From: Acidimicrobiia bacterium
GTDB taxonomy: Bacteria > Actinomycetota > Acidimicrobiia > Spongiisociales > UBA5794
Assembly: GCA_035461905.1 (NCBI GenBank)
Contig: DATHUV010000034.1
Location: 8,574-72,573, forward strand
Length of the DNA: 64,000 bases
Direction of reading: 5' to 3'
The notes under the pieces are model-generated. The model was not told the origin of the DNA and made no database searches. It saw nothing but the letters and a program-made list of their open reading frames with translations. The position numbers were made by a program, and so were the translations under genes. Each line of letters begins with the position of its first letter. The first letter of the stretch is position 1. Below, piece by piece: positions 1,269 through 63,566 of the stretch.

Positions 1269-1329
1269 CCCCCGTTCTTGCGTAACTGGGTTCCGCCCTG
1301 AGTGAAACCCAGTTACGCAAGAACGGGGG
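1269..1329 (+). repeat. Palindromic element copy 1 (perfect 24-bp arms CCCCCGTTCTTGCGTAACTGGGTT, 13-nt loop CCGCCCTGAGTGA)
   Basis: Arms at 1269-1292 and 1306-1329 are perfect reverse complements. The element lies between the co-directional CBS-like and cystathionine gamma-lyase genes. Confidence 0.95.
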
Positions 1330-1400
1330 AGGGGGATACGGTGGGGGCTTCGCCGACGGCTACGGTTCGGGCGTAGCAGCCCACTCTGGAGGACCACGAC

Positions 1401-2555
1401 ATGGACAGCGAGGATCGGTTCGAGACCCTGGCGATCCACGCGGGGCAGGACCCTGACCCTGCGACGGGTGCCGCCGTCGTGCCGATCTACGCCACCTCGA
1501 CCTACGTGCAGGAAGCGCCGGGTGTCCACAAGGGATACGAGTACTCCCGCACGGACAACCCGACGCGGACTGCCCTCCAGACCCAGATCGCAGCCCTCGA
1601 GGGCGTCGGGGCCGACGACGATGGCGGGTGCGTCGCAACCGCTTCCGGCCTCGCGGCGACCGCCCTCATCGGCTACATGCTCGAACCTGGTGACCACATC
1701 CTGCTGCCGAACGACGCGTACGGGGGGACCTTCCGGCTGATCGCCAGGGTGTTGTCGGGCCACGGCATCGAGTGGTCGGCGGTCGACATGACGGACCTCG
1801 ATGCACTGGCGGCGGCGATCCGGCCGGCAACGAAGCTCGTCTGGGTGGAGACCCCGACCAATCCGCTCCTGAGGATCGTCGATATCGCAGGGGTCGTCGA
1901 TGCCGCATCGGATGTCGGGGCGATGGTGGCCGTCGACAACACGTTCGCAACGCCGTTCCTCCAGCGACCCCTCGACCTCGGAGCGGACATCGTGATCCAC
2001 TCGTCGACGAAGTACCTCGGAGGGCACTCCGACACCGTCGGCGGGGCGATCATCACCAACGACTCCGATCTCCACGAGAGGCTCCGATTCCTCCAGAACG
2101 CCGCAGGTCCCGTGCCTGGCCCGTTCGACTGCTACCTCGTGCTCAGGGGGATCAAGACGCTCGCTGTGCGCATGGAGCGCCACACGTCGAACGCCACGGT
2201 GATCGCGAACTTCCTCGCAGACGACCCGCGTGTGGAGTCCGTCTGGTACCCGGGCCTCATCGACGACCCCGGGCACGCGGTGGCCTCTCGCCAGATGGAC
2301 GGGTACGGAGGCATGGTTTCGTTCACCCCCGTCGGAGGTGTCGAGGCGGCGAATGCGATCGTGACCCGAACGCGGCTGTTCTTCCTCGCGGAAAGCCTCG
2401 GGGGCGTCGAGTCCCTCATCGAGGTCCCCGCTGCGATGACCCACCTTTCGGTCGAGGGCACAGATCTCGAGGTGCCCAAGCACCTGATCCGCCTCAGCGT
2501 CGGCATCGAGCATGTCGATGATCTGCTGTCCGACCTCGATCGGGCCCTCGGGTGA
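1401..2555 (+). CDS. Cystathionine gamma-lyase/gamma-synthase family PLP enzyme
   Basis: The 384-aa ORF shows Cys/Met-metabolism PLP family features: IHAGQDPD, the SSTKYLGGHSD lysine motif, and ESLGGVESLIEVPAAMTH. It sits directly downstream of the CBS-like gene. Confidence 0.9.
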   Translation: MDSEDRFETLAIHAGQDPDPATGAAVVPIYATSTYVQEAPGVHKGYEYSRTDNPTRTALQTQIAALEGVGADDDGGCVATASGLAATALIGYMLEPGDHILLPNDAYGGTFRLIARVLSGHGIEWSAVDMTDLDALAAAIRPATKLVWVETPTNPLLRIVDIAGVVDAASDVGAMVAVDNTFATPFLQRPLDLGADIVIHSSTKYLGGHSDTVGGAIITNDSDLHERLRFLQNAAGPVPGPFDCYLVLRGIKTLAVRMERHTSNATVIANFLADDPRVESVWYPGLIDDPGHAVASRQMDGYGGMVSFTPVGGVEAANAIVTRTRLFFLAESLGGVESLIEVPAAMTHLSVEGTDLEVPKHLIRLSVGIEHVDDLLSDLDRALG

Positions 2556-3618
2556 GCGTCGGGTACGATTGCTCGATGGAACACGGACGCGGCGGTTGAT
2601 CGACCCGAAGCTTTACGAACTCGGCTGGAACGAGGAGTGGGAGACGAAGCGCCTCGCCGCAAGGGCCATCGGCGACCCCGCCCGTGTGGTCCGCCATGAC
2701 GCCGTCAGGGTGCTGGTCGCAACCCCCTATCAGGTCGGACAGGTCACGTTCCCCAAACGCATGTCGCTCGCGGTGGGCGATTGGGTCCTCGTGGCCAACG
2801 AAACGGTCACGCACCGGCTCGAGCGAAGCAACGTCCTCGAGCGGGACAACGCCGAGTACGGCACGCAGACGATCGCCGCGAACATCGACCTCGTCTTCGT
2901 GCTCTTCGGGGCCGACAGGCCCCTCAGGCAGCGCAAGGTGATGCGTTTCGTCGCCTTTGCGGGTGACATCGGTGCGACCCCTGTGGTGTTGATCACCAAA
3001 GCGGATCTCGTCGATGACGTCGATGCGCTGAAGGACTCGATCGCGCCCTGGATCCCCGGCGTCGAGGTCATGACGACCTCCATCGAGACGGGGATGGGCC
3101 TTCCCGAGGTCGTAGCCGAGCTCGCGGGGCGGACGGGGACCTTCATCGGGGAATCCGGCGCCGGCAAGTCGTCCCTCGTGAACGCCCTGATGGACGAGGA
3201 GGTCGCCTGGGTGGGTGACGTGCGAGAGCGCGACTCGAAGGGCAGGCACACCACGACCCACCGGGAGCTCCATCGGCTCCCCGGGGGTGGCCTGATCATC
3301 GACAACCCCGGCGTGCGGGCACTCGGCCTCGCCGCGGAGGGTGAGGGGATTGAGGCTGCGTTCTCTGATCTCGAGGAGCTCGCGCTCGAGTGTCGATTCC
3401 GGGACTGCGCCCACAGGAGCGAACCGGGATGCGCAGTGCGCGAGGCGATCGAAGGAGGAGTCCTGACCGAGGAGCGGTGGTCCGCGTACCTCCACTTCGT
3501 GAACGAGCAGGACCAGGCAGCACACCGTGCCGGAGCGCGGGATCGAAGGGCGGCGACCCGTCGGGAGGCTGCGTCGCTGCAACGAGGCCGCGACGCCAGC
3601 GACGTGCTCGACGAGTGA
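2512..3618 (+). CDS. rsgA: Ribosome small-subunit-dependent GTPase A
   Basis: P-loop GESGAGKSSLVNAL, G4-like ITKADL, and C-terminal zinc knuckle CRFRDCAHRSEPGCAV. ATG 2512 overlaps the upstream gene by 44 nt, so the true start is probably in-frame TTG 2569 or 2596, just before LYELGW. Confidence 0.85.
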   Translation: MSMICCPTSIGPSGERRVRLLDGTRTRRLIDPKLYELGWNEEWETKRLAARAIGDPARVVRHDAVRVLVATPYQVGQVTFPKRMSLAVGDWVLVANETVTHRLERSNVLERDNAEYGTQTIAANIDLVFVLFGADRPLRQRKVMRFVAFAGDIGATPVVLITKADLVDDVDALKDSIAPWIPGVEVMTTSIETGMGLPEVVAELAGRTGTFIGESGAGKSSLVNALMDEEVAWVGDVRERDSKGRHTTTHRELHRLPGGGLIIDNPGVRALGLAAEGEGIEAAFSDLEELALECRFRDCAHRSEPGCAVREAIEGGVLTEERWSAYLHFVNEQDQAAHRAGARDRRAATRREAASLQRGRDASDVLDE

Positions 3619-3625
3619 CGGTGCC

Positions 3626-4357
3626 CTAGATCGTCACGCCGAACGGGAGTGCGAGGCGATGGGCCGAGAGCAGTTCGGTGTCACCGAGGATGGTGCGTGT
3701 CGGCCCGTCGGCCACGATTGCTCCCCTGTCGATGATCACGCTTCGCTCACACACCTCGAGGGCGTAGAGCAGGTCGTGCGTCACGATCAGCTGGGTGACG
3801 TCGAGTCCTGCAAGCACACGCGTGAGCTCGGCACGCGCCGCAGGGTCGAGGTTGGCGGTCGGTTCGTCGAGAACGACGATGTCGGGTTCCATCGCGAGGA
3901 CGCCAGCGATCGCCGCGCGGCGCTTCTGACCGAATGAGAGGTGGTTGGGCGATCGATCGGCGAGGTCGGCCACCTCGACGGCCTCGAGCGCGCTGCGGAC
4001 CCGTTCGGCGACCTCTTCGTCATCCAGGCCCAGATTTCGCGGACCGAACGCGACGTCTGCCGCGACGGTCGGCATGAAGAGCTGATCGTCGGGGTCCTGG
4101 AAGACGATGCCGACCCGACGCCGTGCCTCCATGACCGAATCCCTGGCGATCACGATCCCCGACACGCTCACCGACCCCCTCTGGGGCATGTGGATCCCGT
4201 TGAGGTGCAGGACGAGGGTCGTCTTGCCCGCTCCGTTGGGCCCGAGCAGGGCGACCCGCTCACCGCGGTGGATGTGGAGGTCCACGTGGTCGAGCGCAGG
4301 AGTCCCGTCCGGGTACCGGAATGACAGATCCTCGACGGAGATGACGGGGACGCTCAT
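3626..4357 (-). CDS. cbiO: ECF/cobalt-type ABC transporter ATP-binding protein
   Basis: Starts MSVPVISVEDLSFRYPDG. Walker A GPNGAGKTT, signature LSFGQKRR and Walker B IVVLDEPT are present. The start ATG overlaps the cbiQ stop (ATGA). The 391-aa track ORF is an upstream extension through cbiQ. Confidence 0.9.
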   Translation of the reverse strand: MSVPVISVEDLSFRYPDGTPALDHVDLHIHRGERVALLGPNGAGKTTLVLHLNGIHMPQRGSVSVSGIVIARDSVMEARRRVGIVFQDPDDQLFMPTVAADVAFGPRNLGLDDEEVAERVRSALEAVEVADLADRSPNHLSFGQKRRAAIAGVLAMEPDIVVLDEPTANLDPAARAELTRVLAGLDVTQLIVTHDLLYALEVCERSVIIDRGAIVADGPTRTILGDTELLSAHRLALPFGVTI

Positions 4358-5118
4358 CGAAGCACCCATGCAAGGCCGCAGACAAGCCAGGCAGCGGCGA
4401 TGAGTGAGGCAGAGACGATCCACTGCCCCCGCGGCGTCGCAGGCTGGAGCGAGGCGGGCATCGTGCCGGTGTAGCCACGCGACGCCATGGAGAGGTAGAC
4501 GCGTTCGCCTCGTTCGAGCGTCCTGATGAACATCACTCCCACCGTGCGAGCGTACGGGCCCACCTGCATGAACCAGCGAGGGTCGTGTCCTCGAGACGCC
4601 ATCGCGACCCGCATGCGCGACCAGTCCCCGGTGATGACGTCGACGTAGCGAACCATGAAACCCGCGATCGCGGTCACGATCGAGGGCACCCGGAGGCCGT
4701 CGAACCCTGCGAGCATCTCGGTGACCTCCGTCGTCGCCCCGAGGATCACCGCGATAGCGAGGCCCAGCGTTGCTTTCGCGACGATGTTCCAGGCGTCCCA
4801 CAGTCCTGCGGTCGACAGGTCGAAGCCGAGTACCTCGGTGGTCGGACCGGATCCGAAGATGGGGAGCAGCGCGGCGAGGATGAGGAACGGGATCTCGATC
4901 GTCATCCGCCTGGCGGCGAATGCGGGCGTAAGGCCCGCGATCGCAGCGACCGCCACGATCACCGCCGTGTAGACGCCGAATGCCCAGATCGCCTCCCGGG
5001 GCGTCGACACGATCGCAAGCAGCGCGCCGAAGGCGGTCGCGATCTTGATCTGTGGTGCGGCGCGGTGCACCGGGGAGTGCCCGTGCAGGTACAGCGCGTG
5101 GACGTGACTACTCGACAT
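4354..5118 (-). CDS. cbiQ: ECF transporter transmembrane (T) component
   Basis: The 254-aa polytopic membrane protein sits between the PDGLE protein and the cbiO ATPase, in the canonical cbiM-N-Q-O order. Confidence 0.8.
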   Translation of the reverse strand: MSSSHVHALYLHGHSPVHRAAPQIKIATAFGALLAIVSTPREAIWAFGVYTAVIVAVAAIAGLTPAFAARRMTIEIPFLILAALLPIFGSGPTTEVLGFDLSTAGLWDAWNIVAKATLGLAIAVILGATTEVTEMLAGFDGLRVPSIVTAIAGFMVRYVDVITGDWSRMRVAMASRGHDPRWFMQVGPYARTVGVMFIRTLERGERVYLSMASRGYTGTMPASLQPATPRGQWIVSASLIAAAWLVCGLAWVLR

Positions 5119-5142
5119 GGCGATCCGACGCCCCGTCGTCGA

Positions 5143-5457
5143 TCAGCGTTTCGATGCAGGCTCCGGCGTCCTGCTCCGTGCGAGCCAGAACAGCCCGATC
5201 GCGAGCACCGCCGTCACCGCGACACCGACGAAACCCGCGATCGCCGTCGCCGTCGAGGCATCCTGATCGAGGTTCTCCCCATAGTCCGCGAGGGGAGCGT
5301 CCCCGAAGGTGTGGTCCTCGGCGGTGTCGACGAATCCCTCCTCCTCTGCCACGAACTCCAGCCCGTCCGGGTTCGAAGAGGCGAACTGGCTCAGCACGAT
5401 TCCCGTCAACGCGATCACGACGACGGCGACGATGACAAGCATCGTGTTCCTGTTCAT
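5143..5457 (-). CDS. PDGLE-domain small membrane protein (CbiN-position component)
   Basis: 104 aa with an N-terminal TM helix (MLVIVAVVVIALTGIVL), then the SSNPDGLEFV motif and a C-terminal TM helix. Its start overlaps the cbiM stop (ATGA). Confidence 0.75.
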   Translation of the reverse strand: MNRNTMLVIVAVVVIALTGIVLSQFASSNPDGLEFVAEEEGFVDTAEDHTFGDAPLADYGENLDQDASTATAIAGFVGVAVTAVLAIGLFWLARSRTPEPASKR

Positions 5458-6131
5458 ACGAATGCCTCCGTGCGCTCCCCGATGTAGTCCGGCGCCCCGT
5501 AGACGAGGTCGGGCCGTGCCTGGACGACCGCCAGGATCACGAAGAAGGTGATCACGCCCTCACCGATCCCGATGAACACGTGGGTCGTGACCATGGCCCA
5601 CAAGACGGAGGCGAGCGATACCGACTCGGCCGCCCCACCGATCGCGAACTCCACGGCGAATGCAAGGGCAGCCATTGGCACCGATAGGAACGCGGCGACC
5701 CCGGCGGACGCGGCAACTGCCCTGTGGCTCTTCGAGGTGAACCGCAGGATCGCCCGGTAGACGTAGTAACCCCCGACGGACGCGACCAGGCCCATGTTGA
5801 TGATGTTCAGTCCGAGTGCCGACAGGCCCCCGTCGGCGAACAGGAATGCCTGGACGATGAGGACGATGGCGAGGACGACGTACCCCGCCGCAGGCCCCAC
5901 GAGGACCGCTGCCAGGACACCACCGATGAGGTGCCCGCTCATCCCGGGAAGTACGGGAAAGTTCACCATCTGGGCGGCAAAGACGAACGCTGCCGTGAGG
6001 GCGGCGAGGGGGACCAACCGCTCCGTGAGATAGCTGCGGAGCTGGCGAAGGGCGTACGCGAACCCGCCAGCGGCACCGACACCCGCAGCGGCGGACATGC
6101 CCGCATTGATGAACCCGTCGGGTATGTGCAT
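5454..6131 (-). CDS. cbiM: Cobalt/nickel ECF transporter substrate-capture component
   Basis: From ATG 6131 the protein begins MHIPDGFINAG, the N-terminal Met-His-Ile-Pro-Asp-Gly metal-binding signature of CbiM/NikM. It is polytopic. AGGAGG lies 4 nt upstream of the ATG. The metal (Co or Ni) cannot be decided from sequence. Confidence 0.88.
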   Translation of the reverse strand: MHIPDGFINAGMSAAAGVGAAGGFAYALRQLRSYLTERLVPLAALTAAFVFAAQMVNFPVLPGMSGHLIGGVLAAVLVGPAAGYVVLAIVLIVQAFLFADGGLSALGLNIINMGLVASVGGYYVYRAILRFTSKSHRAVAASAGVAAFLSVPMAALAFAVEFAIGGAAESVSLASVLWAMVTTHVFIGIGEGVITFFVILAVVQARPDLVYGAPDYIGERTEAFV

Positions 6132-20257: not shown

Positions 20258-20278
20258 CCGCCCTCCGTCCGAAGTGAA

Positions 20279-20303
20279 AAGGCCCCGGTAGCACCGGGGC
20301 CTT
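20279..20303. terminator. Bidirectional intrinsic-terminator-like hairpin
   Basis: AAGGCCCCGGT-AGC-ACCGGGGCCTT, a perfect 11-bp stem with a 3-nt loop, lies between the convergent small-protein and aminotransferase genes. Confidence 0.7.
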
Positions 20304-20365
20304 CCCATTTCCGACCTGGCACCTAGGACTCAACCGTTTCCGGTGGCCTCGGGAGCGTGAGGCGC

Positions 20366-23704: not shown

Positions 23705-23714
23705 CCGAGGTTGG

Positions 23715-29340: not shown

Positions 29341-29350
29341 CCTGCCCAAC

Positions 29351-29410
29351 CCCGTGTTCTTGCGTAACTGGGTTTCACCCAGGATGGAACCCAGTTACGC
29401 AAGAACGGGA
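29351..29410 (-). repeat. Palindromic element copy 2 (inverted orientation relative to copy 1)
   Basis: Arms GTTCTTGCGTAACTGGGTT at 29356-29374 and AACCCAGTTACGCAAGAAC at 29388-29406. The loop TCACCCAGGATGG is the reverse complement of a copy-1-like loop. It lies between the purL stop and the amidase start. Confidence 0.95.
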
Positions 29411-29427
29411 GCAGGATCGGCGGTACA

Positions 29428-33880: not shown

Positions 33881-33884
33881 TCTC

Positions 33885-33945
33885 TCCCGTTCTTGCGTAA
33901 CTGGGTTCCACCCATGCGTGAAACCCAGTTACGCAAGAACGGAGG
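33885..33945 (+). repeat. Palindromic element copy 3
   Basis: Arms at 33885-33907 and 33922-33943 (core CCGTTCTTGCGTAACTGGGTT), loop CCACCCATGCGTGA. It lies between the convergent glbO and purB genes, and the right arm contains the purB stop codon. Confidence 0.95.
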
Positions 33946-35227
33946 ACTCGAGGCGGTCGAAGACGATCGAGCTGTTGCGTAGGAAGCGGGCGGTGTCGAA
34001 GCAGGTGGCCAGCACGTCGGGGGCGAGGGTGCACTCGGGGTCGGCGGCCAGGCGGCCCTCGAGCGTCCCTCCCTCATCCCATGCGGCCATGGCGTTTTGT
34101 TGGACGATGCGGTACGCCTCGTCACGCGTCGAGCCTCCGTCGACGAGGGCGAGCAGGACGGCCTGGCTGTACACGAGGCCACGTGTCGAGTCGAGGTTCG
34201 CGGCCATGCGATCGGTGTCGACGACCAGGGTCTCGACGAGTCGGGTCATCCGCAACAGGGCATAGTGGAGCAGCGTCGTCGCGTCGGGGAGGGCGACCCG
34301 TTCGACCGATGAATGGGAGATGTCGCGCTCGTGCCACAACGCCACGTCCTCGAGTCCTGCCGATGCATATCCGCGAAGGAGCCTCGCAGCGCCCGTCAGG
34401 TTCTCGGATGCGATCGGGTTCCGCTTGTGGGGCATGGCCGACGAACCCTTCTGCCCGGATCCGAATGCCTCACGAACCTCCCCGACCTCGGACCTCTGCA
34501 GGTGGCGAATCTCGGTTGCGAACCGTTCGAGCGTCGCTCCGACAAGGGCGATCACCGACAGGAAGTGTGCATGACGGTCGCGGGCGACGACCTGAGTGGA
34601 TGCGGGCTCGATATTGAGGCCGAGCTTGTCGCAGACGTACGACTCGACGGATGGGGGAGTGTGCGCGTACGTCCCGACGGCGCCGGAGATCTTCCCGACG
34701 GCGACGTCCGTGACCGCGTCGGTGAGACGTTCGTGATCCCGTTGCACCTCGAACGCCCAGCTTGCGAGTTTCAGCCCGAACGAAGTCGGTTCCGCCCAGA
34801 TGCCATGCGTCCGGCCGATCATGGGTGTGTCTCGGAACTCGAACGCCCTGCGCTTGACGACGTCAAAGAGACCCGAGATCGCGTCGAGCAGCAGGTTGCC
34901 GGCCTCTCCGAGCAGGACACCGGTCGCCGTGTCGAGGACGTCTGAGGAGGTGAGGCCGAAGTGGATCCACTCGCCGCCCTCGCCGACCGACTCCGCCAGG
35001 AGGTCGACGAAGGCCGCAACGTCGTGGTTCGTGACCTTCTCACGCTCCTTCCACGCGACCGAATCGACCTGAGGGCTCTTGCGAGCGGCGTCTGCTGCGG
35101 AGTGGGGCGCTACCCCGAGTTCGGCCCATGCCTCGACGACCAGGATCTCGACGTCGCGCCAGACGGCGAGTTTGCGCGCCTCCGACCAGACATCGTTCAT
35201 CTCGGGCGTCGAGTACCGCTCGATCAT
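33929..35227 (-). CDS. purB: Adenylosuccinate lyase
   Basis: 432 aa: MIERYSTPEM, and GSSAMPHKRNP (fumarate-lyase signature). The last four codons (GTT CTT GCG TAA, VLA-stop) lie inside element copy 3. Confidence 0.94.
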   Translation of the reverse strand: MIERYSTPEMNDVWSEARKLAVWRDVEILVVEAWAELGVAPHSAADAARKSPQVDSVAWKEREKVTNHDVAAFVDLLAESVGEGGEWIHFGLTSSDVLDTATGVLLGEAGNLLLDAISGLFDVVKRRAFEFRDTPMIGRTHGIWAEPTSFGLKLASWAFEVQRDHERLTDAVTDVAVGKISGAVGTYAHTPPSVESYVCDKLGLNIEPASTQVVARDRHAHFLSVIALVGATLERFATEIRHLQRSEVGEVREAFGSGQKGSSAMPHKRNPIASENLTGAARLLRGYASAGLEDVALWHERDISHSSVERVALPDATTLLHYALLRMTRLVETLVVDTDRMAANLDSTRGLVYSQAVLLALVDGGSTRDEAYRIVQQNAMAAWDEGGTLEGRLAADPECTLAPDVLATCFDTARFLRNSSIVFDRLESSVLA

Positions 35228-43978: not shown

Positions 43979-43985
43979 TCCGGCG

Positions 43986-44028
43986 CTTCCTGCGTACGAA
44001 CCCGTGTGGGCATCAGTTACGCAGGAAC
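43986..44028. repeat. Degenerate palindromic element copy 7
   Basis: CTTCCTGCGTA (43986-96) and TTACGCAGGAAC (44017-28) match the family arms with substitutions (GTTCCTGCGTAA). The element lies between the convergent ABC ATPase and lgt genes. Its right arm encodes the lgt C-terminus V-P-A-stop. Confidence 0.7.
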
Positions 44029-44871
44029 CGTCTCCTTCTGGGGTGAGAGCAGGGTTGGGTCCCCGATCAAGGTGCGGCGCTCCGCTCGCTTCTGCGTGTA
44101 CCAGATCCATGCGAGGCCGCCGGCAAATGCGACGATGGACACCCAGCCGTTGCGGCTGAGCCCGAGGAACCGGAACGTCGTATCCGTGCGAATGAGCTCC
44201 ATCACGAACCTGATGAACGCGTACATCGCGACGTACACACCCCATGAGGCACCCTTCGCGAGCTTGCCACGCCGCTCCAGCCACAGGATCGTCGGTACGA
44301 GGATGAGCAGGTTCCACAACGCCTCGTACGCGAACGTCGGGTGGAACGTCTCGAACTGCTCATAGCCGTCGGGGCGTCGTGCGGGGTCGATGATGATCGC
44401 CCACGGCAGGTCGCTCGGTGTTCCGAACAACTCCTGGTTGAAGTAGTTGCCGAAGCGGCCGATGGCCTGGGCGAGGGGGAGCCCGACGGCGATCGCATCG
44501 CCGATCGCAAACAGGTCCCCCTGATGCTTGTCGACAAGGTAGATGATCGTGAGTGCCCCGAACACGAGCCCCCCATAGAGGGCGAGCCCACCCTCCCAGA
44601 TGTACAGCATCGCCCACGGCCTGCCCGAGAAACGGCCCGTATGGGTCACGACGTACGCGGCCCGGGCACCGAGGAATCCGATCACGACGGCCCAGATCGC
44701 GACCTTCTCGAAGAGCTCTGGACTCCCACCGAACCGGGCGTAGCGATGCCTCGACACGATGATCGCGGTGATGACGCCTATCGCGATCAGGATCCCGTAG
44801 AAGTGGATGGTCAGCGGACCGATCTCGATCGTGTTCTGGGCAGGCGAAGGGATGGCCGCGATCAGGTTCAT
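44017..44871 (-). CDS. lgt: Prolipoprotein diacylglyceryl transferase
   Basis: 284 aa: IHFYGILIAIG, GRFGNYFNQELFG. The start overlaps the AhpD-like stop (ATGA). Confidence 0.92.
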   Translation of the reverse strand: MNLIAAIPSPAQNTIEIGPLTIHFYGILIAIGVITAIIVSRHRYARFGGSPELFEKVAIWAVVIGFLGARAAYVVTHTGRFSGRPWAMLYIWEGGLALYGGLVFGALTIIYLVDKHQGDLFAIGDAIAVGLPLAQAIGRFGNYFNQELFGTPSDLPWAIIIDPARRPDGYEQFETFHPTFAYEALWNLLILVPTILWLERRGKLAKGASWGVYVAMYAFIRFVMELIRTDTTFRFLGLSRNGWVSIVAFAGGLAWIWYTQKRAERRTLIGDPTLLSPQKETVPA

Positions 44872-50668: not shown

Positions 50669-51091
50669 ATGCCCCTTCCCGCGAAACTCGACCAGATCGT
50701 CACCCTGATGCACGGTGCACCCAAGAACCTCAAGGTCGAGGCGATGCTCGACTACTCGCGCCGGCTGCCACCCCTGCCTTCGCACATCGAGGCGGCGGAC
50801 CTCGAGCAGGTCCACGAGTGCCAATCCCCGTTCTTCCTCGCGACGGAGGTCGATGACGACGGGACGGTGCACCTCTTCTTCGAAGTGCCCCAGGAAGCCC
50901 CGACGGTGCGCGGCTTCGCCGGGATTCTGCTCGACGGCCTCGATGGTGAGTCCGCGGATGTCGTGCTCGGGGTTCCCGACGACTTCTTCTACGCGATGGG
51001 TCTCGAGGAGGTCGTCACACCGATGCGGTTGCGCGGCATGGGAGCGATCCTCGCAAGGATCAAGCGTCAAGTGCGCGACGCCGTCGCATGA
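50669..51091 (+). CDS. sufE: SufE-like sulfur acceptor protein
   Basis: From ATG 50669: [11 protein letters not shown]...[10 protein letters not shown] (conserved Cys)...[14 protein letters not shown]. It is divergent from the rhodanese gene. Confidence 0.8.
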
Positions 51092-51104
51092 CCCGGACGC
51101 GAGA

Positions 51105-51126
51105 GGGGAGCGCCCGGGCGCTCCCC
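51105..51126. terminator. GC-rich palindromic hairpin between convergent sufE and SPFH genes
   Basis: GGGGAGCGCC-CG-GGCGCTCCCC is a perfect 10-nt inverted repeat. The top pairs must open to form a loop. Confidence 0.55.
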
Positions 51127-51149
51127 GCCGGCAACCCGGTTCCACGCCG

Positions 51150-54745: not shown

Positions 54746-54752
54746 CGGAGAT

Positions 54753-54804
54753 GTTCTTGCGTAACTGGGTTCCACCCATGGGCGGAACCCAGTTACGCAA
54801 GAAC
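54753..54804 (+). repeat. Palindromic element copy 4
   Basis: GTTCTTGCGTAACTGGGTT at 54753-71 and AACCCAGTTACGCAAGAAC at 54786-804. The inner CC/GG pairs extend the stem. The right arm contains the clpB stop codon (54793-95). Confidence 0.95.
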
Positions 54805-57369
54805 GGCGAAGGTGGGGCCGTTCTCGTCGGCGCCGATGGTGACCCGCGAGCCCTCGGGGAGCTCACCGGCGAGGACACGCATCGCAAGCGGGTCGGCGAC
54901 CGCCGTCTGGAGCAGGCGCTTCAGCGGCCTCGCCCCGTAGGTGGGGTCGTAGCCGTGGTCGGTGAGCCAGTCGATACCGGCATCGGCCAGTTCCACGTCG
55001 ATCTTGCGATCGGCGAGCCGGTGGCGGAGGATCTCGAACTGGATCTCGACGATCTGGCGAAGGTCCTCTCTGGTGAGTCGATGGAAGACGATCACGTCGT
55101 CGACCCGGTTGAGGAACTCCGGGCGGAAGTGCCCACGCACCGCACCCATCACCCTCTCCTCGACGACCTCCTCGGGCAGCTCGGGGTCGATGAACTCCGA
55201 CCCGAGATTGGACGTCATCACGAGGACGGTGTTCGTGAAGTCGACGGTTCGACCCTGCCCGTCCGTCATGCGGCCGTCATCGAGCACCTGGAGGAGGGCG
55301 TTGAACACGTCGGAGTGGGCCTTCTCGACCTCATCGAGGAGGATCACCGAATACGGCCTCCGCCGAACCGCCTCGGTCAGCTGGCCTCCCTCGTCATACC
55401 CGACGTACCCGGGGGGAGCGCCGATGAGGCGGCTCACGGAGTGCTTCTCCATGTACTCGGACATGTCGATGCGCACCATTGCCCGCTCGTCGTCGAACAT
55501 GAACTGCGCCAGGGCCCTGGCGAGCTCGGTCTTGCCGACGCCCGTCGGGCCGAGGAAGAGGAACGAGCCGATCGGTCGATTCGGGTCCGAGAGGCCCGCC
55601 CGTGAGCGTCGGATCGCGCTCGCGATCGATGTCACCGCCTCTTGCTGCCCTACGACGCGGCCGTGGAGATGGTCCTCGAGATGGATGAGTTTGTGCATCT
55701 CGCCCTCCATGAGCTTGGACACCGGAACACCGGTCCATCGGCTCACGACCTCGGCGACGTCCTCCTCGTCGACTTCCTCCTTGAGCATCTTCAGGTCCTG
55801 CTGGAGCGAGTCGAGCCTGCCCTGTTCCTCCTGGAGTTGCTGATCGAGGCTCGGCAGGGTCGCATACCGCAGTTCGGCAGCCCGCTCGAGATCCCCGGAA
55901 CGCTCGGCACGGTCGGCCTCGGCGCGGGACTCCTCGATCCGTCCCTTCGTCCCTCGGATCGCGTCGATCGAATCCTTCTCGAGCTGCCAGTGCGCCATGA
56001 GGGCGTCGAGCTCCTCACCGATATCCGCTAGCTCCTCGACGATCGCCTCGCGACGCTCCTCTGAAGCACGGTCCTCTTCCTTGGCAAGGGCCTGGCGCTC
56101 GATCTCGAGCTGACGGCGCCGTCGTTCGAGTTCATCGATCTCGTCAGGCATCGAGTCGATCTCGATCCGGAGCTTCGACGCCGCCTCATCGATGAGGTCG
56201 ATCGCCTTGTCCGGAAGGTGCCGGCCGGTCACGTACCGGTCCGAGAGGACGGCCGCACCGATGAGGGCAGCGTCCGTGATACGAACCCCGTGGTGGACCT
56301 CATAGCGCTCCTTGAGGCCACGAAGGATGCCGATGGTCTCGTCGACACTCGGGGCATCGACGAGGACTGGCTGGAATCGACGCTCGAGCGCAGCGTCCTT
56401 CTCGATGTACTTGCGGTACTCGTCGAGCGTCGTCGCCCCGACCATGCGGAGCTCACCGCGGGCGAGCATCGGCTTGAGCATGTTCGATGCGTCCATCGAC
56501 CCCTCGGCGGCGCCCGCTCCGACGATCGTGTGCATTTCGTCGATGAAGGTGATGATGCGACCCTCAGCGGCCTTGATCTCACCGAGCACCGCCTGGAGTC
56601 GCTCCTCGAATTCTCCGCGGTACTTCGCACCTGCAACCATCGATCCGATGTCGAGGGCGACGAGCCGTCGGTTCTTGAGGCTCTCGGGGACGTCACCGTC
56701 GACGATCCGCTGGGCGAGGCCCTCCGCAATCGCCGTCTTGCCCGTGCCCGGTTCGCCGATGAGGACGGGGTTGTTCTTCGTTCGGCGTGAGAGCACCTGA
56801 ACGACGCGACGAATCTCGTCGTCGCGACCGATGACCGGGTCGAGTCTTCCCCTCCTGGCCTCCTCGGTGAGGTCCCTCCCGTACTTGTCGAGTGGCGCGA
56901 ACGTGTCCTCGGGGTTCTGGCTCGTCACGCTCTGGCTCCCGCGCACAGACGCGAGTGACTCGAGGATCGTGGCCTTCGTCACGCCGGCAGATCGGAGGAT
57001 CTCCCCGGCGGTGAACTCAGACTCCGCAAGTGCGATCAGGATGTGCTCGACAGAGGTGTAGGCGTCCTTCATCCCCGTCCGCTCGCGTGTTGCCGCGTCG
57101 AGGACGTCGAGCGTGTCTTGCGAGAACGCGACCTCTGATCCACCAACGACCCTCGGGATCGCAGCGAGCGCGGCATCGAGCGGTTGCCGTACCGCCGTGA
57201 CGTGGGCGCCGACGGACGCGAGGATCGGGTACACCAGGCCGTCCGTCTGGGCGAGCAAGGCATCGAGGAGGTGCTCGGGCTGCGCATACTGGTGGTTGCG
57301 TGCGCTGGCCACGTCCCGTGCGTGGAGGATCGCCTGTTGGCTTCGCTGCGTGAAGGTGTTGATGTCCAT
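54793..57369 (-). CDS. clpB: ATP-dependent chaperone/disaggregase ClpB
   Basis: From ATG 57369 ([14 protein letters not shown]). There are two AAA+ modules ([10 protein letters not shown] and [11 protein letters not shown]) and a middle coiled coil. The C-terminus ...[10 protein letters not shown]-stop has its last codons inside element copy 4. Confidence 0.95.
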
Positions 57370-58530: not shown

Positions 58531-58551
58531 TCCGATCACTGCGTGATCGGA
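58531..58551 (+). terminator. Hairpin downstream of the PCu(A)C gene
   Basis: TCCGATCAC-TGC-GTGATCGGA, a 9-bp stem 28 nt after the stop. There is no T-tract. Confidence 0.45.
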
Positions 58552-58734
58552 AGCCTCCAGCCTACGAGCTGGGTTTCGAGGCCCAAGACGGTCGGCCTAC
58601 CTATGAGACAGCAAGACTCTTGGGGGGACGGGCGAACGAAGTGAGCCAGGGGGTCCGCGAGCCCGCGAGCACGGGAGTGGGATGCGGCCGCGGTGTGGTT
58701 CTTCGTCCCGTGATCCCCCTGCATCGTCGCTTCG

Positions 58735-58773
58735 CTCCTCTGCCGTCCCCCTTGAAAAGGGGGACGAGAGGAG
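58735..58773 (-). terminator. Extended hairpin immediately downstream of the DUF427 gene
   Basis: CTCCTCT-GCC-GTCCCCCTT-GAA-AAGGGGGAC-G-AGAGGAG gives 16 bp in total with a small internal loop, starting 16 nt after the minus-strand stop at 58789. Confidence 0.55.
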
Positions 58774-58788
58774 TCCGGCGTCAGCCGA

Positions 58789-59073
58789 TCAGGGGGTGAC
58801 CTTCACTCCGCGCCAGAAGGCGATGTAGTCCTTGATGTCGGATGCCGCAGGCTTCGGATCCGGGTAGTACCACGCGGCACCGGCGTTGACGGCTCCATCG
58901 ACCACGACGTCGTAGTAGCTCGCTGTCCCCTTCCAAGGGCACACCGTGTGGGCATCCGACGCCTTGAAGAACTCGGTGTGCACCGCGTCCGGAGGGAAGT
59001 AGTGGTTCCCCTCGACCACGATGGTCTCGTCGCTCTCGGCAACGACCGTTCCGTTCCATGTGGCAATTGCCAT
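58789..59073 (-). CDS. DUF427-domain protein
   Basis: 94 aa: WNGTVVAESDETIVVEGNHYFPPDAV...CPWKGTASYYDVVVDG..NAGAAWYYPDP. Confidence 0.8.
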   Translation of the reverse strand: MAIATWNGTVVAESDETIVVEGNHYFPPDAVHTEFFKASDAHTVCPWKGTASYYDVVVDGAVNAGAAWYYPDPKPAASDIKDYIAFWRGVKVTP

Positions 59074-59184
59074 GGCCTACTCCTCAGTTGACTTGTTGTG
59101 TCCTCTTGAACGGTTCGGTCCGGCGCTGCATTCCGGATGTCGACTCGCAGGCATAGAGGGCCCCGCGCCCACTAGCGTTGCGGC

Positions 59185-59817
59185 ATGCTGCCGATACGCA
59201 TCATCGAGACCGAACGAGAGGACTTCGACGGGCCCATCGTCGAGCTGTGGCGCGAGGACGACTTCATCGGCCTCGTGTTCTGGGACGGCGAGGCGACGAT
59301 CCTGCAGGTGTACCCGGACGGGGAGGGCGACGTCCACGATCTGGACGTACGCGAGCTCCAGATGCTGTTGGACACGGCGATGCGGATCGTCGATCCCGAC
59401 GCCTTCGATGCGGAGATGGACCAGCTCCGGAGCGCGGCCGTGGCCGCACAGTCGTGGGGGGACGAGCACCCGGCAACGGTCGAGCTGCTTGCCGACTTCG
59501 ATGGGCGGGCCGTGTTCCGCACGGACGAAGGCGAGGGGTTCTTCGATCGTGCGACTGCATTGGCGTTCATCGACAAGTGCGAGGAGCTGGACCTTGCCGT
59601 CGTGGAGATGGACGGCCTCGACCTCGTGGACGACGCGGTGACGTCACGCGAAGGCCTCGACCTGGTCGTACCCGACCAGCCGATGATGACGTGGTCCGAG
59701 GCGCGGGCATTCGCAAACCGAACTGCCCACCGAACGCTCGACGGATGGCCTGCTGATGACGACCTCGTGGTGGCGTTCGTGTTCCGCCAACCCGACGGAG
59801 AGGACATCGTCGCGTGA
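59185..59817 (+). CDS. Acidic hypothetical protein
   Basis: 210-aa ORF, Asp/Glu-rich, with codon usage like its neighbours. No recognisable motif. Confidence 0.55.
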   Translation: MLPIRIIETEREDFDGPIVELWREDDFIGLVFWDGEATILQVYPDGEGDVHDLDVRELQMLLDTAMRIVDPDAFDAEMDQLRSAAVAAQSWGDEHPATVELLADFDGRAVFRTDEGEGFFDRATALAFIDKCEELDLAVVEMDGLDLVDDAVTSREGLDLVVPDQPMMTWSEARAFANRTAHRTLDGWPADDDLVVAFVFRQPDGEDIVA

Positions 59818-59821
59818 TGTC

Positions 59822-60178
59822 TCACGCCGACGCCGTGATGAGCACCCCCGTCACGAGATAGATCGCTCCGACGAGGAGCGGTATGTTCGTGATCACCGAC
59901 TCGGTGCCTCTCGGGGTTTCCCACGACGAACCGTTGATCGCCAGGTCGATGAACGAACCCGCGATGGGGCCGAAGATCATCGTCAACACGCCGAGCACCA
60001 CGACGAGGTATCCCATCATCGTCTGGACGGCGACTGGCTCACACGCTGCGCCCACCACGGTTCCATCGCAGAAGTCCGGCCACAGTGGTGCGAATACGAC
60101 CGACAGCACCCAAGCCGCCGCATAGCCGGCGACAGTCAGGACGACCGTCCGGATTGGCCTCGATCGAAGCATCCGCAT
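59822..60178 (-). CDS. Hypothetical integral membrane protein
   Basis: 118 aa with three predicted TM segments. It converges on the previous gene with a 4-nt gap. Confidence 0.55.
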   Translation of the reverse strand: MRMLRSRPIRTVVLTVAGYAAAWVLSVVFAPLWPDFCDGTVVGAACEPVAVQTMMGYLVVVLGVLTMIFGPIAGSFIDLAINGSSWETPRGTESVITNIPLLVGAIYLVTGVLITASA

Positions 60179-60258
60179 CAGGCAAGGGTAGGGGATGTCG
60201 ATCTGCCCGGCCCGGCGCCGCGTATTACCCTGTGTGTGTTCCCCCGAGGAAGTGACCA

Positions 60259-61332
60259 GTGCCGAGATACCGACCGGACATCGATGCGATTCCCCGGTAC
60301 GTACCGGGCAGACCCATCGAGGACGTCGTTCGCGAGCTCGGCATCACGTCCATCGACAAGCTCGCCTCGAACGAGCATCCCGAGCCCCCGTTTCCCGAGG
60401 TGCTCGAGGCCATCCACGCCGCATCCGACGGACTCAACCGCTATCCCGACAGCGGCGTCCACGTCCTCAGGCATGCCATTGCCGAGTACCACGGCGTTCC
60501 ACCTGAAGCGGTCTGGGTCGGTGCAGGGTCATCCGAGATCCTGCGATGCTCCGCACTGGCCGTGGGGGGTCCTGGTACGAGCGCGGTCTATGCATCCCCG
60601 TCGTTCGTGATGTACGCGATCGGGACCATGATCTCGGGTGCGGAGCCGGTGACGGTGCCGCTCACGCCCGGCCACGACCACGACCTGGACGCGATGCTCG
60701 CCGCGCTGCGCGAGGACACGACGATGGTCTACGTGTGCAATCCGAACAACCCGACGGGCGGCTTCCGTAGCGGGGACGACGTCGATGCGTTCATCTCGGA
60801 GGTGCCGACGGGCACGGTGTTGATCATCGATGAGGCGTACGCGGAGTACGTCACCGATCCGACCTATCGCTCCATGGTCCACCGTGCACTCGAGTCGCCG
60901 AACGTACTCGTGACCCGCACGTTCTCGAAGGTCTACGGCCTTGCGGGCCTCCGTGTCGGGTACGGCATCGGCGATCCCGACATGGTTGCGACGCTCCGAA
61001 CGACCCAGGCTCCATTCTCGGTCACGACTCTCGGCCAGGTCGCGGCTCTCGAGGCGCTCCGACACGATGACCGTGTCCGGGACAGGGCGGCCGCCAACGC
61101 GAAAGGCAGGGAGACCCTCGTGGAGGGCCTCACCGCCCTCGGCTACCTGGTGGCGCCGACGCAGGCGAACTTCGTGTATTTCGAGCCGGAGAACGGGGCG
61201 GCCGCCCTCGGCGACCGGCTCCTCTCGCTCGGCATCATCGTCAGGGTGCTCGGTGACGGTGTCCGCGTCTCCGTCGGGACAGAGGACGAGAACGCGCGTT
61301 TCCTCGCGGCGATGGGTGACCTCGATGCGTAG
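60259..61332 (+). CDS. Histidinol-phosphate / aromatic amino-acid aminotransferase (class II)
   Basis: GTG start. LASNEHPEPP, YPDSG, NPNNPTG, IIDEAYAEY, and TFSKVYGLAGLRVGY (PLP lysine). Confidence 0.88.
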   Translation: MPRYRPDIDAIPRYVPGRPIEDVVRELGITSIDKLASNEHPEPPFPEVLEAIHAASDGLNRYPDSGVHVLRHAIAEYHGVPPEAVWVGAGSSEILRCSALAVGGPGTSAVYASPSFVMYAIGTMISGAEPVTVPLTPGHDHDLDAMLAALREDTTMVYVCNPNNPTGGFRSGDDVDAFISEVPTGTVLIIDEAYAEYVTDPTYRSMVHRALESPNVLVTRTFSKVYGLAGLRVGYGIGDPDMVATLRTTQAPFSVTTLGQVAALEALRHDDRVRDRAAANAKGRETLVEGLTALGYLVAPTQANFVYFEPENGAAALGDRLLSLGIIVRVLGDGVRVSVGTEDENARFLAAMGDLDA

Positions 61333-61342
61333 GCCTTCCAAC

Positions 61343-61404
61343 TCCCCGTTCCTGCGTAACTCACGTCCCCTCCCGGGGCGTCAGCTACGCAAGGACGGGA
61401 GGGG
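61343..61404. repeat. Degenerate palindromic element copy 5
   Basis: CCCCGTTCCTGCGTAACTCACG ... CGTCAGCTACGCAAGGACGGGAGGGG. The arms match the family with several substitutions and still largely pair. The right arm GGACGGGAGGGG doubles as the Shine-Dalgarno region for the ATG at 61410. Confidence 0.75.
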
Positions 61405-61409
61405 CGCCC

Positions 61410-63527
61410 ATGCGTGAGCCTGCATCGGTCGATTGGGCGGATCTGTATGAGGTCGTCGGACGTGACGGGTCGATCGTCGGGGACGGTGAGATGCCGCCGT
61501 GGATCACGGAGGAACTCGCAACCGACCTCTACCGGGGGATGCTGTGCGCGAGGGTGTTCGACCGGCGTGCCACCGCAGCCCAGCGTCAGGGGCGGATCGG
61601 CACGTACGCGATCGCCGAGGGGCACGAAGCGATCCAGGTCGGGAGCGCCAAGGCACTTCGACCGAATGACTTCGTATACCCGGGGTATCGGGAGCACGGC
61701 GTGCAGATCGCAATGGGCGTCCCCTACGACACGATCCTGTCGTACTGGCGGGGCCTCCCCAACGCGACCTGGGATCCGCCTGCCATGCGCCAGATGGTGG
61801 TCACGGTGCCGATCGGAAGCCATCTCCCCCACGCGGTCGGGCACGCGTATGCCGAGCGTCTCGCCGGACACGATGTGGTGACGGTCGCCTACATCGGTGA
61901 TGGCGGGACATCCGAGAACGACTTCCACTCCGGGGTCAACTTCGCGGGTGTGTGGAAGACGCCCACCGTCTTCATCGTGTCAAACAACTTCTACGCGATC
62001 TCGGTGCCGTACGAGCAGCAGACGGCAGCCGCGAACCTCGCTGCGAAGGCTCCGGGCTATGGCGTGGCGGCAGAGCGGGTGAACGGGTTCGATGCCCTCG
62101 CGGTATACGACGCAACGCGTCGAGCCGTCGAGCGTGGAGCGGCGGGGGATGGGCCAACGCTCATCGAGGCTGTCTGTTACCGATTCGGTCCCCACGCAAC
62201 TGCCGACGATCCCGGCCTGTACCGGACGAAGGACGAGGAGGAACTGTGGCGCCCGTACGACCCGCTCATCCGGATGCGTCGGTTCCTCGAGTCGAACGGG
62301 TGGTGGGATACCGATCGTGAGGACGAAGCACAGAATGCGGCCGCGTCCGCCTTCGATCAAGCGCTCGACCGGGTGACCGCGATCCCGCTTCCTCCACGGT
62401 CGGATGCGATCGCGCACACCTTCTCGCGAACACCCGACTCCCTCCTCGAGCAGCTCAATCGAATAGAGGATGCCGCAGGGGAGGCCAGGACTGAGCTCCC
62501 GGCGTCGGAGCGGTTCGATGTGGGTGTGGACCAGCTCCCCGACGGTCCAACCACCTCGTTGACGATGGCAGAGGCCATCAACGCTGCGTTGCACCATGAG
62601 ATGGGTGCTGATCCCACGACCGTTCTCCTCGGCCAGGACGTCGCGGTGGCCGGAGGTGTGTTCCGGGTGTCCGTCGGCCTCCTCGAGGCGTTCGGTCCCG
62701 AACGGGTGATCGACACGCCGATCAACGAGTCCGGCATCGTCGGGACGGCGATCGGCATGGCGATGGCCGGGATGAGGCCGATCGCTGAGATCCAGTTCGA
62801 AGGGTTCTCATATCCCGCGTTCGACCAGATCGCGAGCCACCTCGGACGGATACGGTTCCGCTCCCGCGGGCACACGTCGCTCCCGATGGTTCTACGGATG
62901 CCCAACGGAGCAGGCATCGGCGCCCACGAGCACCACTGTGACAGTCCCGAGGCGTACTTTGCCCACGTGCCCGGTGTGATCGTCGTCGTCCCTTCGTCCC
63001 CGATCGACGCCAAGGGTCTGCTCGCAGCCGCGATCCGGTCACCGGACCCGGTGATCTTCCTCGAACCGAAGGTGTTGTACAGGGCCGGACGCGAGGAGGT
63101 GCCCGACGCACCGTACGAGCTCCCCATCGGCAGGGCCCGTATCCGTCGCCCCGGAAGCGATGTCACCCTCGTGACCTACGGGGGGATGGTGCCCGTTTCG
63201 CTCCGTGCGGCGGGGATGGTGGAGGGGGAAGGCGTCGATGTCGAGGTGATCGACCTTCGCACGATCTACCCGTGGGATGTCGGGACAGTGGCGGACTCGG
63301 TCAGCCGAACGGGCCGCCTTCTCTTCGTCCAGGAGCCCCAACGCACGGGAGGGGTGGGTGCCGAGGTCGTGGCCGAGATCGCCGAACGGTGCGGCTACGA
63401 CCTGATCGCTCCACCGCGGCGGTTCAGCGCGACGGACGCCCCGTGGCCCCAGTTCGCGGTCGAACGACACGCACTGCTCACCGACACGATGATCGCCTCG
63501 GAACTCCGCTCCCTCGTTCTTGCGTAA
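61410..63527 (+). CDS. Fused 2-oxoacid dehydrogenase E1 component (alpha and beta subunits in one polypeptide)
   Basis: Residues about 1-350 form the E1-alpha TPP-binding part (YIGDGGTSENDFH, NNFYAIS). After a linker, residues about 385-705 form E1-beta (MAEAINAALHHEM, IDTPINESGIVG, EIQFEGFSYPAFDQI). It is a single uninterrupted ORF whose last codons GTT CTT GCG TAA lie inside element copy 6. Confidence 0.88.
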   Translation: MREPASVDWADLYEVVGRDGSIVGDGEMPPWITEELATDLYRGMLCARVFDRRATAAQRQGRIGTYAIAEGHEAIQVGSAKALRPNDFVYPGYREHGVQIAMGVPYDTILSYWRGLPNATWDPPAMRQMVVTVPIGSHLPHAVGHAYAERLAGHDVVTVAYIGDGGTSENDFHSGVNFAGVWKTPTVFIVSNNFYAISVPYEQQTAAANLAAKAPGYGVAAERVNGFDALAVYDATRRAVERGAAGDGPTLIEAVCYRFGPHATADDPGLYRTKDEEELWRPYDPLIRMRRFLESNGWWDTDREDEAQNAAASAFDQALDRVTAIPLPPRSDAIAHTFSRTPDSLLEQLNRIEDAAGEARTELPASERFDVGVDQLPDGPTTSLTMAEAINAALHHEMGADPTTVLLGQDVAVAGGVFRVSVGLLEAFGPERVIDTPINESGIVGTAIGMAMAGMRPIAEIQFEGFSYPAFDQIASHLGRIRFRSRGHTSLPMVLRMPNGAGIGAHEHHCDSPEAYFAHVPGVIVVVPSSPIDAKGLLAAAIRSPDPVIFLEPKVLYRAGREEVPDAPYELPIGRARIRRPGSDVTLVTYGGMVPVSLRAAGMVEGEGVDVEVIDLRTIYPWDVGTVADSVSRTGRLLFVQEPQRTGGVGAEVVAEIAERCGYDLIAPPRRFSATDAPWPQFAVERHALLTDTMIASELRSLVLA

Positions 63528-63566
63528 CTGAGTTCCACCCTCGGTGGAACTCAGTTACGCAAGAAC
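63516..63566. repeat. Palindromic element copy 6 (variant with perfect 24-bp arms and a 3-nt loop)
   Basis: GTTCTTGCGTAACTGAGTTCCACC (63516-39), CTC, then GGTGGAACTCAGTTACGCAAGAAC (63543-66). It exactly fills the gap between the convergent E1 fusion (stop 63525-27) and hspR (stop 63570-72). Confidence 0.95.

Follow-up and report, generated by a model that had tools for sequence, protein, structure and literature searches.

A dispersed family of long palindromic elements in Acidimicrobiia and its candidate partner, an AbiEi-DUF559 nuclease gene

Dispersed palindromic repeats are common in bacteria; to our knowledge, the repetitive extragenic palindromic (REP) sequences with their RAYT enzymes are the only ones that have a known enzyme partner, and many families (e.g., CGTC REPs) have none. 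Here we describe a long palindromic element present in seven copies in a 64-kb stretch of DNA (the window: 64,000 nucleotides of the Acidimicrobiia bacterium assembly GCA_035461905.1, contig DATHUV010000034.1, positions 8,574 to 72,573), together with a gene that palindromes of the same family flank in related genomes. Judged from its sequence, the site is a symmetric DNA of ~55-60 bp that consists of two inverted half-sites of ~23-25 bp and brackets a single gene in relatives. With a probability of about 0.6, we regard the window elements as solo cognate sites of the predicted AbiEi-DUF559 nuclease encoded by this gene, and as part of an enzyme-plus-repeat partnership that resembles a REPtron. 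The partnership looks previously undescribed and comparable to REP/RAYT pairs: the literature searched contained no description of the element and no paper linking DUF559 proteins to flanking palindromes. The first-pass annotation of the window, made from its letters, had likewise recognized no named repeat family, and matches were absent from Rfam, from the plasmid and phage collections, and from the literature.

In behaviour, the REP/REPIN-RAYT systems (REPtrons) and the TIR-TIRYT systems, built on terminal inverted repeats (TIRs), come closest to the element (PMC3733652; PMC3116915). Like REP sequences, the element is a short extragenic palindrome dispersed at gene ends that can supply stop codons, as reported for genes flanked by GTAG REPs (PMC3733652). 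Its genome-specific consensus and vertical persistence recall REPINs, for which a species-specific consensus and a long persistence by vertical descent are known. As with RAYTs, an enzyme gene, apparently one per genome, is flanked by the repeat, and variants of the enzyme go with different cognate repeats. With seven copies in 64 kb and copies in at least 13 species genomes, it is a high-copy short extragenic palindrome in the REP sense. Unlike in REP/RAYT systems, the predicted enzyme combines an AbiEi winged helix-turn-helix (wHTH) with a Vsr-like PD-(D/E)XK nuclease instead of being an HUH tyrosine transposase, no GTAG/CGTC tag stands at the ends of the conserved block CGTTCTTGCGTAACTG, and the arms are not self-complementary, so that no small hairpin forms per arm. 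Instead, two half-sites form a long, near-perfect palindrome in which the spacing of the boxes is fixed; this suggests that the element is recognized as duplex DNA by a dimer and not as a single-stranded hairpin.

A second precedent concerns DNA binding. The operator bound by AbiEi consists of two inverted repeats of 23 bp with 3 bp between them, and Rv2827c binds repeat pairs 13 bp apart (PMC7319586). Like the operators of these type IV toxin-antitoxin systems (two ~23-bp inverted repeats, 3-13 bp apart; PMC7319586), the site lies just upstream of a gene for a homologous DNA-binding module, and it has the operator geometry (arms of 22-25 bp, a gap of 0-14 bp, and 44-48 bp from box to box). 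In contrast to these operators, the partner of the module is a fused nuclease domain and not a separate AbiEii nucleotidyltransferase toxin, a second site stands at the 3' end of the gene, and sites occur about once per 9 kb in non-promoter positions.

Two other systems share single traits with the element. Free-standing homing endonuclease genes, such as that of the Vsr-like EDxHD enzyme I-Bth0305I (3R3P), have the same catalytic fold (TM 0.67-0.79), are present or absent at one precise site, and occur in many unrelated contexts; unlike there, the candidate recognition sites are intact on both sides of the gene and repeated on the chromosome, and no intron or intein is involved. Integron attC sites are likewise palindromic, located at gene 3' ends and composed of a conserved base and a variable, species-homogeneous distal part, with a gene present or absent between two of them. 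Unlike attC, the element has perfect stems with neither extrahelical bases nor strand asymmetry, its sequence does not match the R-box consensus, the flanking genes are housekeeping genes, and both orientations occur; no integrase was found in the window or the loci analysed. The consensus sequences of attC, parS, dif, CIRCE and uptake sequences do not fit the element.

The AbiEi-DUF559 gene and its bracketing palindromes

The gene encodes a protein of ~310 amino acids (aa) with the Pfam domains AbiEi_4 and DUF559/REase_MTES_1575. The PADLOC AbiEi models match its residues 6-182 (E 3e-29). In Foldseek searches with the AlphaFold2 (AF2) model (mean confidence, pLDDT, of 92.8), the N-terminal ~200 residues matched the AbiEi antitoxin 6Y8Q (E 2e-6) and Rv2827c (1ZEL), and the C-terminal ~100 residues matched the catalytic domain of I-Bth0305I and the DUF559 structure 3HRL, which was also found by a PDB profile search. 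D239, E250, D252 and H257 are invariant in 23 homologues. The protein is predicted to be a complete AbiEi-type winged-helix DNA-binding module fused to a Vsr-like (DUF559, PD-(D/E)XK) nuclease. Neither the protein nor the element had a match in the plasmid and phage collections; in viral contigs the element gave one match, by chance, inside a phage open reading frame (ORF).

The site between purB and glbN is occupied in the window by copy 3 of the element. In five loci (L077, L020, L035, L115 and L121) a gene of 304-320 aa is bracketed there by two full elements, in L116 the gene is preceded by one variant-core copy and has a decayed one at its 3' end, and in L123 it has two diverged copies that were left unpaired by blastn; the window has a single element and no gene at this site. 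The gene is convergent with purB in L020, L035, L116, L121 and L123, and has the inverse orientation in L077 and L115. Next to purB, the AbiEi-DUF559 gene can thus be present, inverted or absent, and always between or at palindromes. The outer left flank of copy 3 corresponds to the purB-side copy of the metagenome-assembled genome (MAG) CAVWBO01, and the glbN-side copy of this MAG is matched by the inner stem (CACGCATGGGTGG) and the right flank of copy 3, so that the solo copy of the window looks recombinant, as a deletion between the two copies would leave it.

To cover more distant relatives, 80 metagenomic loci encoding homologues at 30-69% identity were fetched and scanned with a covariance model (R1) that had been built on 64 aligned copies from the window and other genomes. 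Of its 36 matches in these loci, 32 adjoin the ends of the gene, a zone that makes up 8.9% of the sequence (binomial p 1e-29). A de novo search found a matching repeat pair of 25-60 nt bracketing the gene in at least 37 of the 67 loci with both flanks present; the members of these pairs are palindromes of 45-60 bp, and their similarity stops at the palindrome edges. The purB/glbN context accounts for only 6 of 86 loci, and L118 and L120 carry R1-type palindromes at both gene ends and none elsewhere in 21 kb. The bracketing copies are in direct orientation in 16 pairs and inverted in 10 (4 undecidable), which rules out that they are always direct repeats. An upstream palindrome (stem of at least 12 bp) is present in 45 of the 70 assessable loci; it mostly ends 10-50 nt before the start codon, and a Shine-Dalgarno-like AAGGGGG directly follows the upstream copy. 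Gene and site accompany each other in many lineages and genomic contexts.

The sequence of the palindrome varies by locus (GTTCTTGCGTA.., GTCTGGCGTAG.., TTCTGTGTGCGC.., GTTCTTGGCGCGC.., AAATCTGGCC..), and the identity of the arms rises from 0.31 to 0.76 with increasing identity of the proteins, i.e., the site sequence co-diverges with the protein. The box spacing is shared by different subtypes: a TCTKG box lies 22-24 nt from the dyad, and the outer boxes TCTKG...CMAGA are 44-45 bp apart in 47 of 56 palindromes (47-48 bp in five of six measured copies of the window). Solo copies also expanded in several lineages independently of one another; L146, for instance, has 5 copies in 7.6 kb, distributed over four successive intergenic gaps and the 3' end of the nuclease gene, and L162 has 4 copies in 9 kb, one of them with a flipped centre.

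Copies in the window and their variation between genomes

The 19-nt core GTTCTTGCGTAACTGGGTT occurs 10 times in the window, in the form of five inverted pairs with at most one mismatch (Table 1); none is expected by chance (0.00 matches in the shuffled window sequence). The arms of these five copies are 25-28 nt long and 92-100% complementary. An unfiltered scan of the whole window with R1 gave exactly seven sites, five of them at 65-78 bits, and the next match had 10 bits (E >1). The model separates from noise the same seven sites that the first-pass annotation had listed. That annotation had called two of them degenerate, which holds for copy 4 (43986-44028), a decayed copy whose orthologous site in another MAG is a perfect copy; its other degenerate copy (copy 6, 61343-61404) belongs to a subtype dominant in other genomes, its inner stem (CACGTCC..GGGGCGTC) resembling the type that prevails in BTQL01 and JAWOJB01. 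Five of the seven copies are near-perfect, one represents a diverged subtype, and one has decayed. Copy 7 shows a compensated G>A / C>T change in both arms, and its inner stem GAGTTCC is the dominant type in JAQAZV01 and L115.

All window copies are intergenic or overlap only the last codons of a gene, and each follows at least one gene end. The placement proposed earlier, with four copies between convergent and three between co-directional genes, was upheld with flanking genes supported by Pfam. These are housekeeping genes (Cys/Met enzymes, purL, an amidase, glbN, purB, an ABC ATPase, lgt, clpB, an aminotransferase, E1 and a MerR regulator). The copies are not parts of larger segmental duplications, their similarity ending at the palindrome edges, and the flanks consist of a complementary C-run and G-run, not of direct repeats. 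The window has ~65% G+C, and no tRNA and no Rfam family was detected in it; nothing reached the Rfam gathering thresholds, and relaxed E-values gave only miRNA-like hairpin look-alikes.

Table 1. Copies of the palindromic element in the window, with positions counted from its first nucleotide, the strand of the flanking genes in brackets and the score of covariance model R1.
Copy	Extent	Core pair	Sequence	Flanking genes	R1 score	Orthologous copy or site
1	1268..1330	1274-1324	CCCCC-GTTCTTGCGTAACTGGGTT..AACCCAGTTACGCAAGAAC-GGGGG	PALP-enzyme gene (+, stop 1267); Cys/Met-metabolism PLP-enzyme gene (+)	78 bits	CAVWBO01 (L057 947-989)
2	29350..29412	29356-29406		purL (-, stop 29428); amidase gene (-, start 29349)	68 bits	CAVWBO01 (L063 4408-4450); L115 (15976-16018)
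3	33883..33946	33889-33940		glbN (+); purB (-)	74 bits	
4	43980..44034		CTTCCTGCGTAC...CAGTTACGCAGGAAC (decayed)	amino-acid ABC transporter ATPase gene (+); lgt (-)	24 bits, E 1e-4	JASJBC01 (L031 7031-7070)
5	54747..54810	54753-54804		F420H2-dependent reductase-like gene (+); clpB (-)	66 bits	CAVWBO01 (L008 2067-2110)
6	61342..61402		GTTCCTGCGTAACTCACGTCC...GGGGCGTCAGCTACGCAAGGAC (other inner-stem subtype)	aminotransferase gene (+); 2-oxoacid dehydrogenase E1 gene (+)	52 bits	
7	63510..63572	63516-63566		E1 gene (+); MerR-family gene (-)	73 bits	

Related genomes carry the family as well. Species-representative genomes (one per species) were scanned for TTGCGTAACT-N5-35-AGTTACGCAA, which gave at least 114 matching stretches; about half of the stretches listed come from 13 Acidimicrobiia or Actinomycetota MAGs, and the number of species-level Acidimicrobiia genomes with the family is at least 13. 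The nearly invariant part is the block CGTTCTTGCGTAACTG, and bases beyond the search pattern (C-GTTC ... GAAC-G, and the G after the core) are also almost fixed; in a more distant lineage, only CGTTCTTGCGTA is conserved. The inner 8-11 bp of the stem vary between genomes and are uniform within each (types GGGTTCCACC, GAGTTCC, GACGTCCTCC, GGTAGCCGC, GAGTCCCC and GGCGGCC). Alignment columns 24-27, which pair with 42-45, covary, both sides being changed in ~45% of the sequences, and none of 500 shuffles reached the observed value. From the related centres of the copies, the first-pass annotation had suggested that they descend from one oriented element; across genomes, the consensus reads as a perfect palindrome (...GGGTTCCACCCA|TGGGTGGAACCC...), and because it is symmetric, an oriented centre is not a feature of the family. 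The asymmetric centres of the window copies are point changes around the dyad.

The positions of the copies are old. CAVWBO01 is syntenic with the window at ~88% identity, and its positions orthologous to copies 1, 2, 3 and 5 are occupied. In six genomes, purB ends inside the element with GTT CTT GCG TAA (TAG in L116), at a purB identity of 70-88%, and each of these six copies bears the inner stem of its own genome. The shared purB end and the genome-specific inner stem together point to old, stable sites whose sequence has been repeatedly overwritten from copies in the same genome. Orthologous sites with genome-specific inner stems thus indicate concerted evolution.

Several observations were made on individual copies. 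The sequence GTT CTT GCG TAA (or TAG) provides a Val-Leu-Ala-stop end to purB, clpB, E1 and the nuclease gene itself. Such element-internal gene ends lie in the window at 33929-33940 (right arm of copy 3, purB stop at 33929-33931), 54793-54804 (right arm of copy 5, clpB stop at 54793-54795) and 63516-63527 (left arm of copy 7, in which the E1 gene ends at 63527), and at the end of purB in L077, L115, L020, L035 and L116. In L121, one palindrome holds the ends of two convergent genes, which enter it from opposite sides. In MAG111, three copies (L015 3370-3411, L017 1668-1709 and L022 5021-5062) are chimeric, with a left arm of one inner-stem subtype and a right arm of another; they therefore point to exchange between copies at or near the dyad. 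MAG111 also has a full element in an 80-nt spacer (L018 2687-2728) where the window has an 'empty' site, a 10-nt spacer between convergent genes (23705-23714). We tried to derive an insertion signature from this pair and rejected it, as at 72% identity the sequences are too diverged for the junctions to be defined.

Proposed mechanism and rival explanations

If the window elements are cognate sites of the nuclease, the AbiEi-like module would bind each arm as AbiEi binds its operator of 2 x 23 bp, and the fused nuclease would cut at or near the site. Repair of the breaks by recombination between copies would homogenize the family, and the chimeric copies could be outcomes of such repair from other copies. 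The same breaks may lead to inversion or deletion of the segment between two copies, and would allow the gene to enter or vacate a site, in either orientation. An effect at the RNA level, such as that of a 3' hairpin, would be secondary. A wider proposal, which we advance only tentatively and hold to be somewhat doubtful, is that of an unrecognized enzyme-plus-repeat class in Actinomycetota, in which a nuclease cuts its own ~50-bp sites, repair spreads and homogenizes these sites, and the gene, possibly any segment between two sites, is excised, inverted or re-inserted in either orientation. If true, such a class would be an analogue of RAYT/REPIN built on a nuclease of the homing-endonuclease type.

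Several points weigh against the view of the window elements as nuclease sites. The 64-kb window lacks the AbiEi-DUF559 gene, ~30-45% of the homologue loci have no recognizable bracketing pair, and in L122 there is only an ordinary hairpin. Palindromes with a GTTCTTGCGTAACT core were found in Parachlamydiaceae and deltaproteobacterial MAGs with no AbiEi-DUF559 gene within the 8-kb pieces examined. The two palindromes could also have simpler roles, the upstream one as an operator in autoregulation and the downstream one in termination. PD-(D/E)XK nucleases are not recombinases, and no way is known in which such an enzyme would place an entire palindrome at a new locus. That the protein binds and cleaves the site and that the system is mobile is what we infer from sequence comparisons.

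Among the alternatives, two are about equally improbable and deserve a closer look. In the first, the element is an ordinary REP/REPIN or a miniature inverted-repeat transposable element (MITE) that is mobilized in trans by an unlinked RAYT-type HUH or DDE transposase, and the nuclease gene is one more gene colonized by it. A short, palindromic, extragenic repeat that is packed at gene ends and supplies stop codons, as GTAG REPs do (PMC3733652), fits this view, and so do the species-specific consensus and vertical persistence known for REPINs. It does not account for the bracketing of one gene family in at least 37 of 67 loci, in unrelated contexts and at some loci with no other copy nearby, nor for the co-divergence of palindrome and protein. 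There is also no GTAG/CGTC tag, no internal REP hairpin per arm and no target-site duplication. The few single arms (up to one mismatch) are compatible with matches to a 10-mer by chance, and none of them marks a longer element. A phmmer search of the ~1 Mb examined, with IS200 TnpA and E. coli YafM as queries, gave no match. The first-pass annotation had described the repeat as REP/MITE-like and named a RAYT/IS200-like gene or another enzyme tracking the element as possible partners. Of this description, the dispersed family in short intergenic gaps at gene ends stands, and the affiliation with tagged REPs or with elements that duplicate their target sites does not. No RAYT/IS200-like ORF was found in the ~1 Mb of sequence; an enzyme that tracks the element does exist in the form of the AbiEi-type wHTH and Vsr-like nuclease gene bracketed by palindromes. 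A DDE-derived MITE was rejected in its own right, there being no target-site duplication, no parent insertion sequence (IS), and flanks that are complementary and not direct repeats.

The second, hardly more or less improbable than the first, takes the palindromes as operators of an AbiEi-type regulator, the upstream copy serving autoregulation and the dispersed copies forming a host regulon or roadblocks at gene ends, with nothing mobile. It agrees with the AbiEi operator geometry, with the position of the upstream copy 10-50 nt before the start codon and ahead of AAGGGGG, and with the stability of sites at orthologous positions over deep divergence. It conflicts with the distribution of solo copies, which are far commoner at 3' ends and between convergent genes than at promoters (by crude gene calls, 16 convergent, 24 tandem and at most 8 divergent), and autoregulation gives no reason to expect another copy at the 3' end of the gene. 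The nuclease domain is conserved with its invariant acidic and histidine residues, multi-nucleotide inner stems homogenized genome-wide need copying between sites and not site-by-site selection, and gene presence, absence and inversion all occur at one site.

Distinctly less probable than either is that the copies are RNA elements, i.e., bidirectional terminators or 3'-stabilizing hairpins selected at gene ends, with the associations at the DNA level as by-products. The predicted hairpins are strong (-44 to -55 kcal/mol, z -8 to -12.6; for copy 1, -55 kcal/mol and z -8.8), all window copies follow a gene end, and the REP hairpin in intercistronic regions is a classic precedent. The terminator role considered in the first-pass annotation was nevertheless not borne out at the level of sequence: despite the strong hairpins, an intrinsic terminator was rejected, the downstream flank being G/A-rich on both strands with no U-tract, and the mismatches in the stem (G.U 14 vs C.A 14) show no transcribed-strand bias. 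A 16-nt invariant block is unnecessary for a hairpin, the box spacing is fixed across subtypes, and some copies lie between divergent genes. The lack of a G.U bias, the G-rich 3' flank and the presence of a few copies between divergent genes make the constraint look DNA-level, not RNA-level.

That the cores are DNA-uptake-type signals in inverted pairs, as in the DNA uptake sequences (DUS) of Neisseria or the uptake signal sequences (USS) of Haemophilus, is hardly credible: the conservation of the core, its lineage 'dialects' and the inverted pairing at gene ends would fit, but each of the 10 core matches in the window belongs to a pair, with no singles and none wholly inside a gene, the density is far under DUS/USS levels, and the family is tied to a specific gene.

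As for the reading of the window elements as sites of the nuclease, it would tie a repeat family to a protein wholly different from RAYTs, for which a fold and a precedent of DNA binding are available, as are dozens of natural variants whose cognate sites differ. How such repeats spread, stay homogeneous within a genome and reshape gene order would become open to simple biochemistry. It would also assign a function to a very large actinobacterial group that is annotated only as DUF559 or AbiEi-domain proteins, and it suggests a natural set of long, programmable-looking site/nuclease pairs.

Other palindromes and hairpins

Small palindrome families with a (G)TTCTTGCGTAACT or TTGCGTAAC core were noticed in a Parachlamydiaceae MAG, and similar ones in a deltaproteobacterial MAG and in Elusimicrobia (L021 847-927; L111 1222-1300 and 4055-4136; L107 725-835; L030 4157-4250; L005 3575-3670; L061 7775-7835). 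One Parachlamydiaceae copy directly follows an apparent AbiEi-AbiEii operon (ORF translations read by eye), and the palindromes of the deltaproteobacterial MAG have two cores per arm. A half-site preference common to AbiEi-type winged helices could be the cause of such palindromes in different phyla. In the Elusimicrobia palindromes, the outer GGGGTCAGAC agrees with GGGGWSAS, a motif of the TIRs associated with TIRYT genes. It also resembles Tn3 TIRs, and Tn3-type ends were considered and discarded for the family, since the Acidimicrobiia copies lack this outer part.

Other hairpins were seen in the window. Two unique GC-rich inverted repeats (20267-20315 and 51091-51140) in other intergenic gaps are ordinary terminator-like hairpins outside the family, so that not every gene end of the window uses the element. 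An unrelated repeat of ~130 nt, GGGGGGACGGGCGAACGAAGTGAGCC...GGTTCTTCGTCCCGTGATCCCCC, at 58622-58751 (also in L057 4836-4963) forms a long imperfect hairpin; it has no Rfam match and is 85% identical to a non-orthologous position in CAVWBO01, and a GC hairpin (58743-58766) is found downstream of it. In Bacillaceae (Neobacillus, Anoxybacillus and Psychrobacillus), the hairpin AAAAATTGCGTAACT-loop-AGTTACGCAATTTTT (L012 1578-1608 and ~45 other loci) shares a 10-nt stem with the element and was judged a chance match, not a member of the family. It is placed between the substrate-binding-protein and permease genes of an amino-acid ABC transporter operon, a position that recalls the classic intercistronic REP sequences of hisJ-hisQ and malE-malF.

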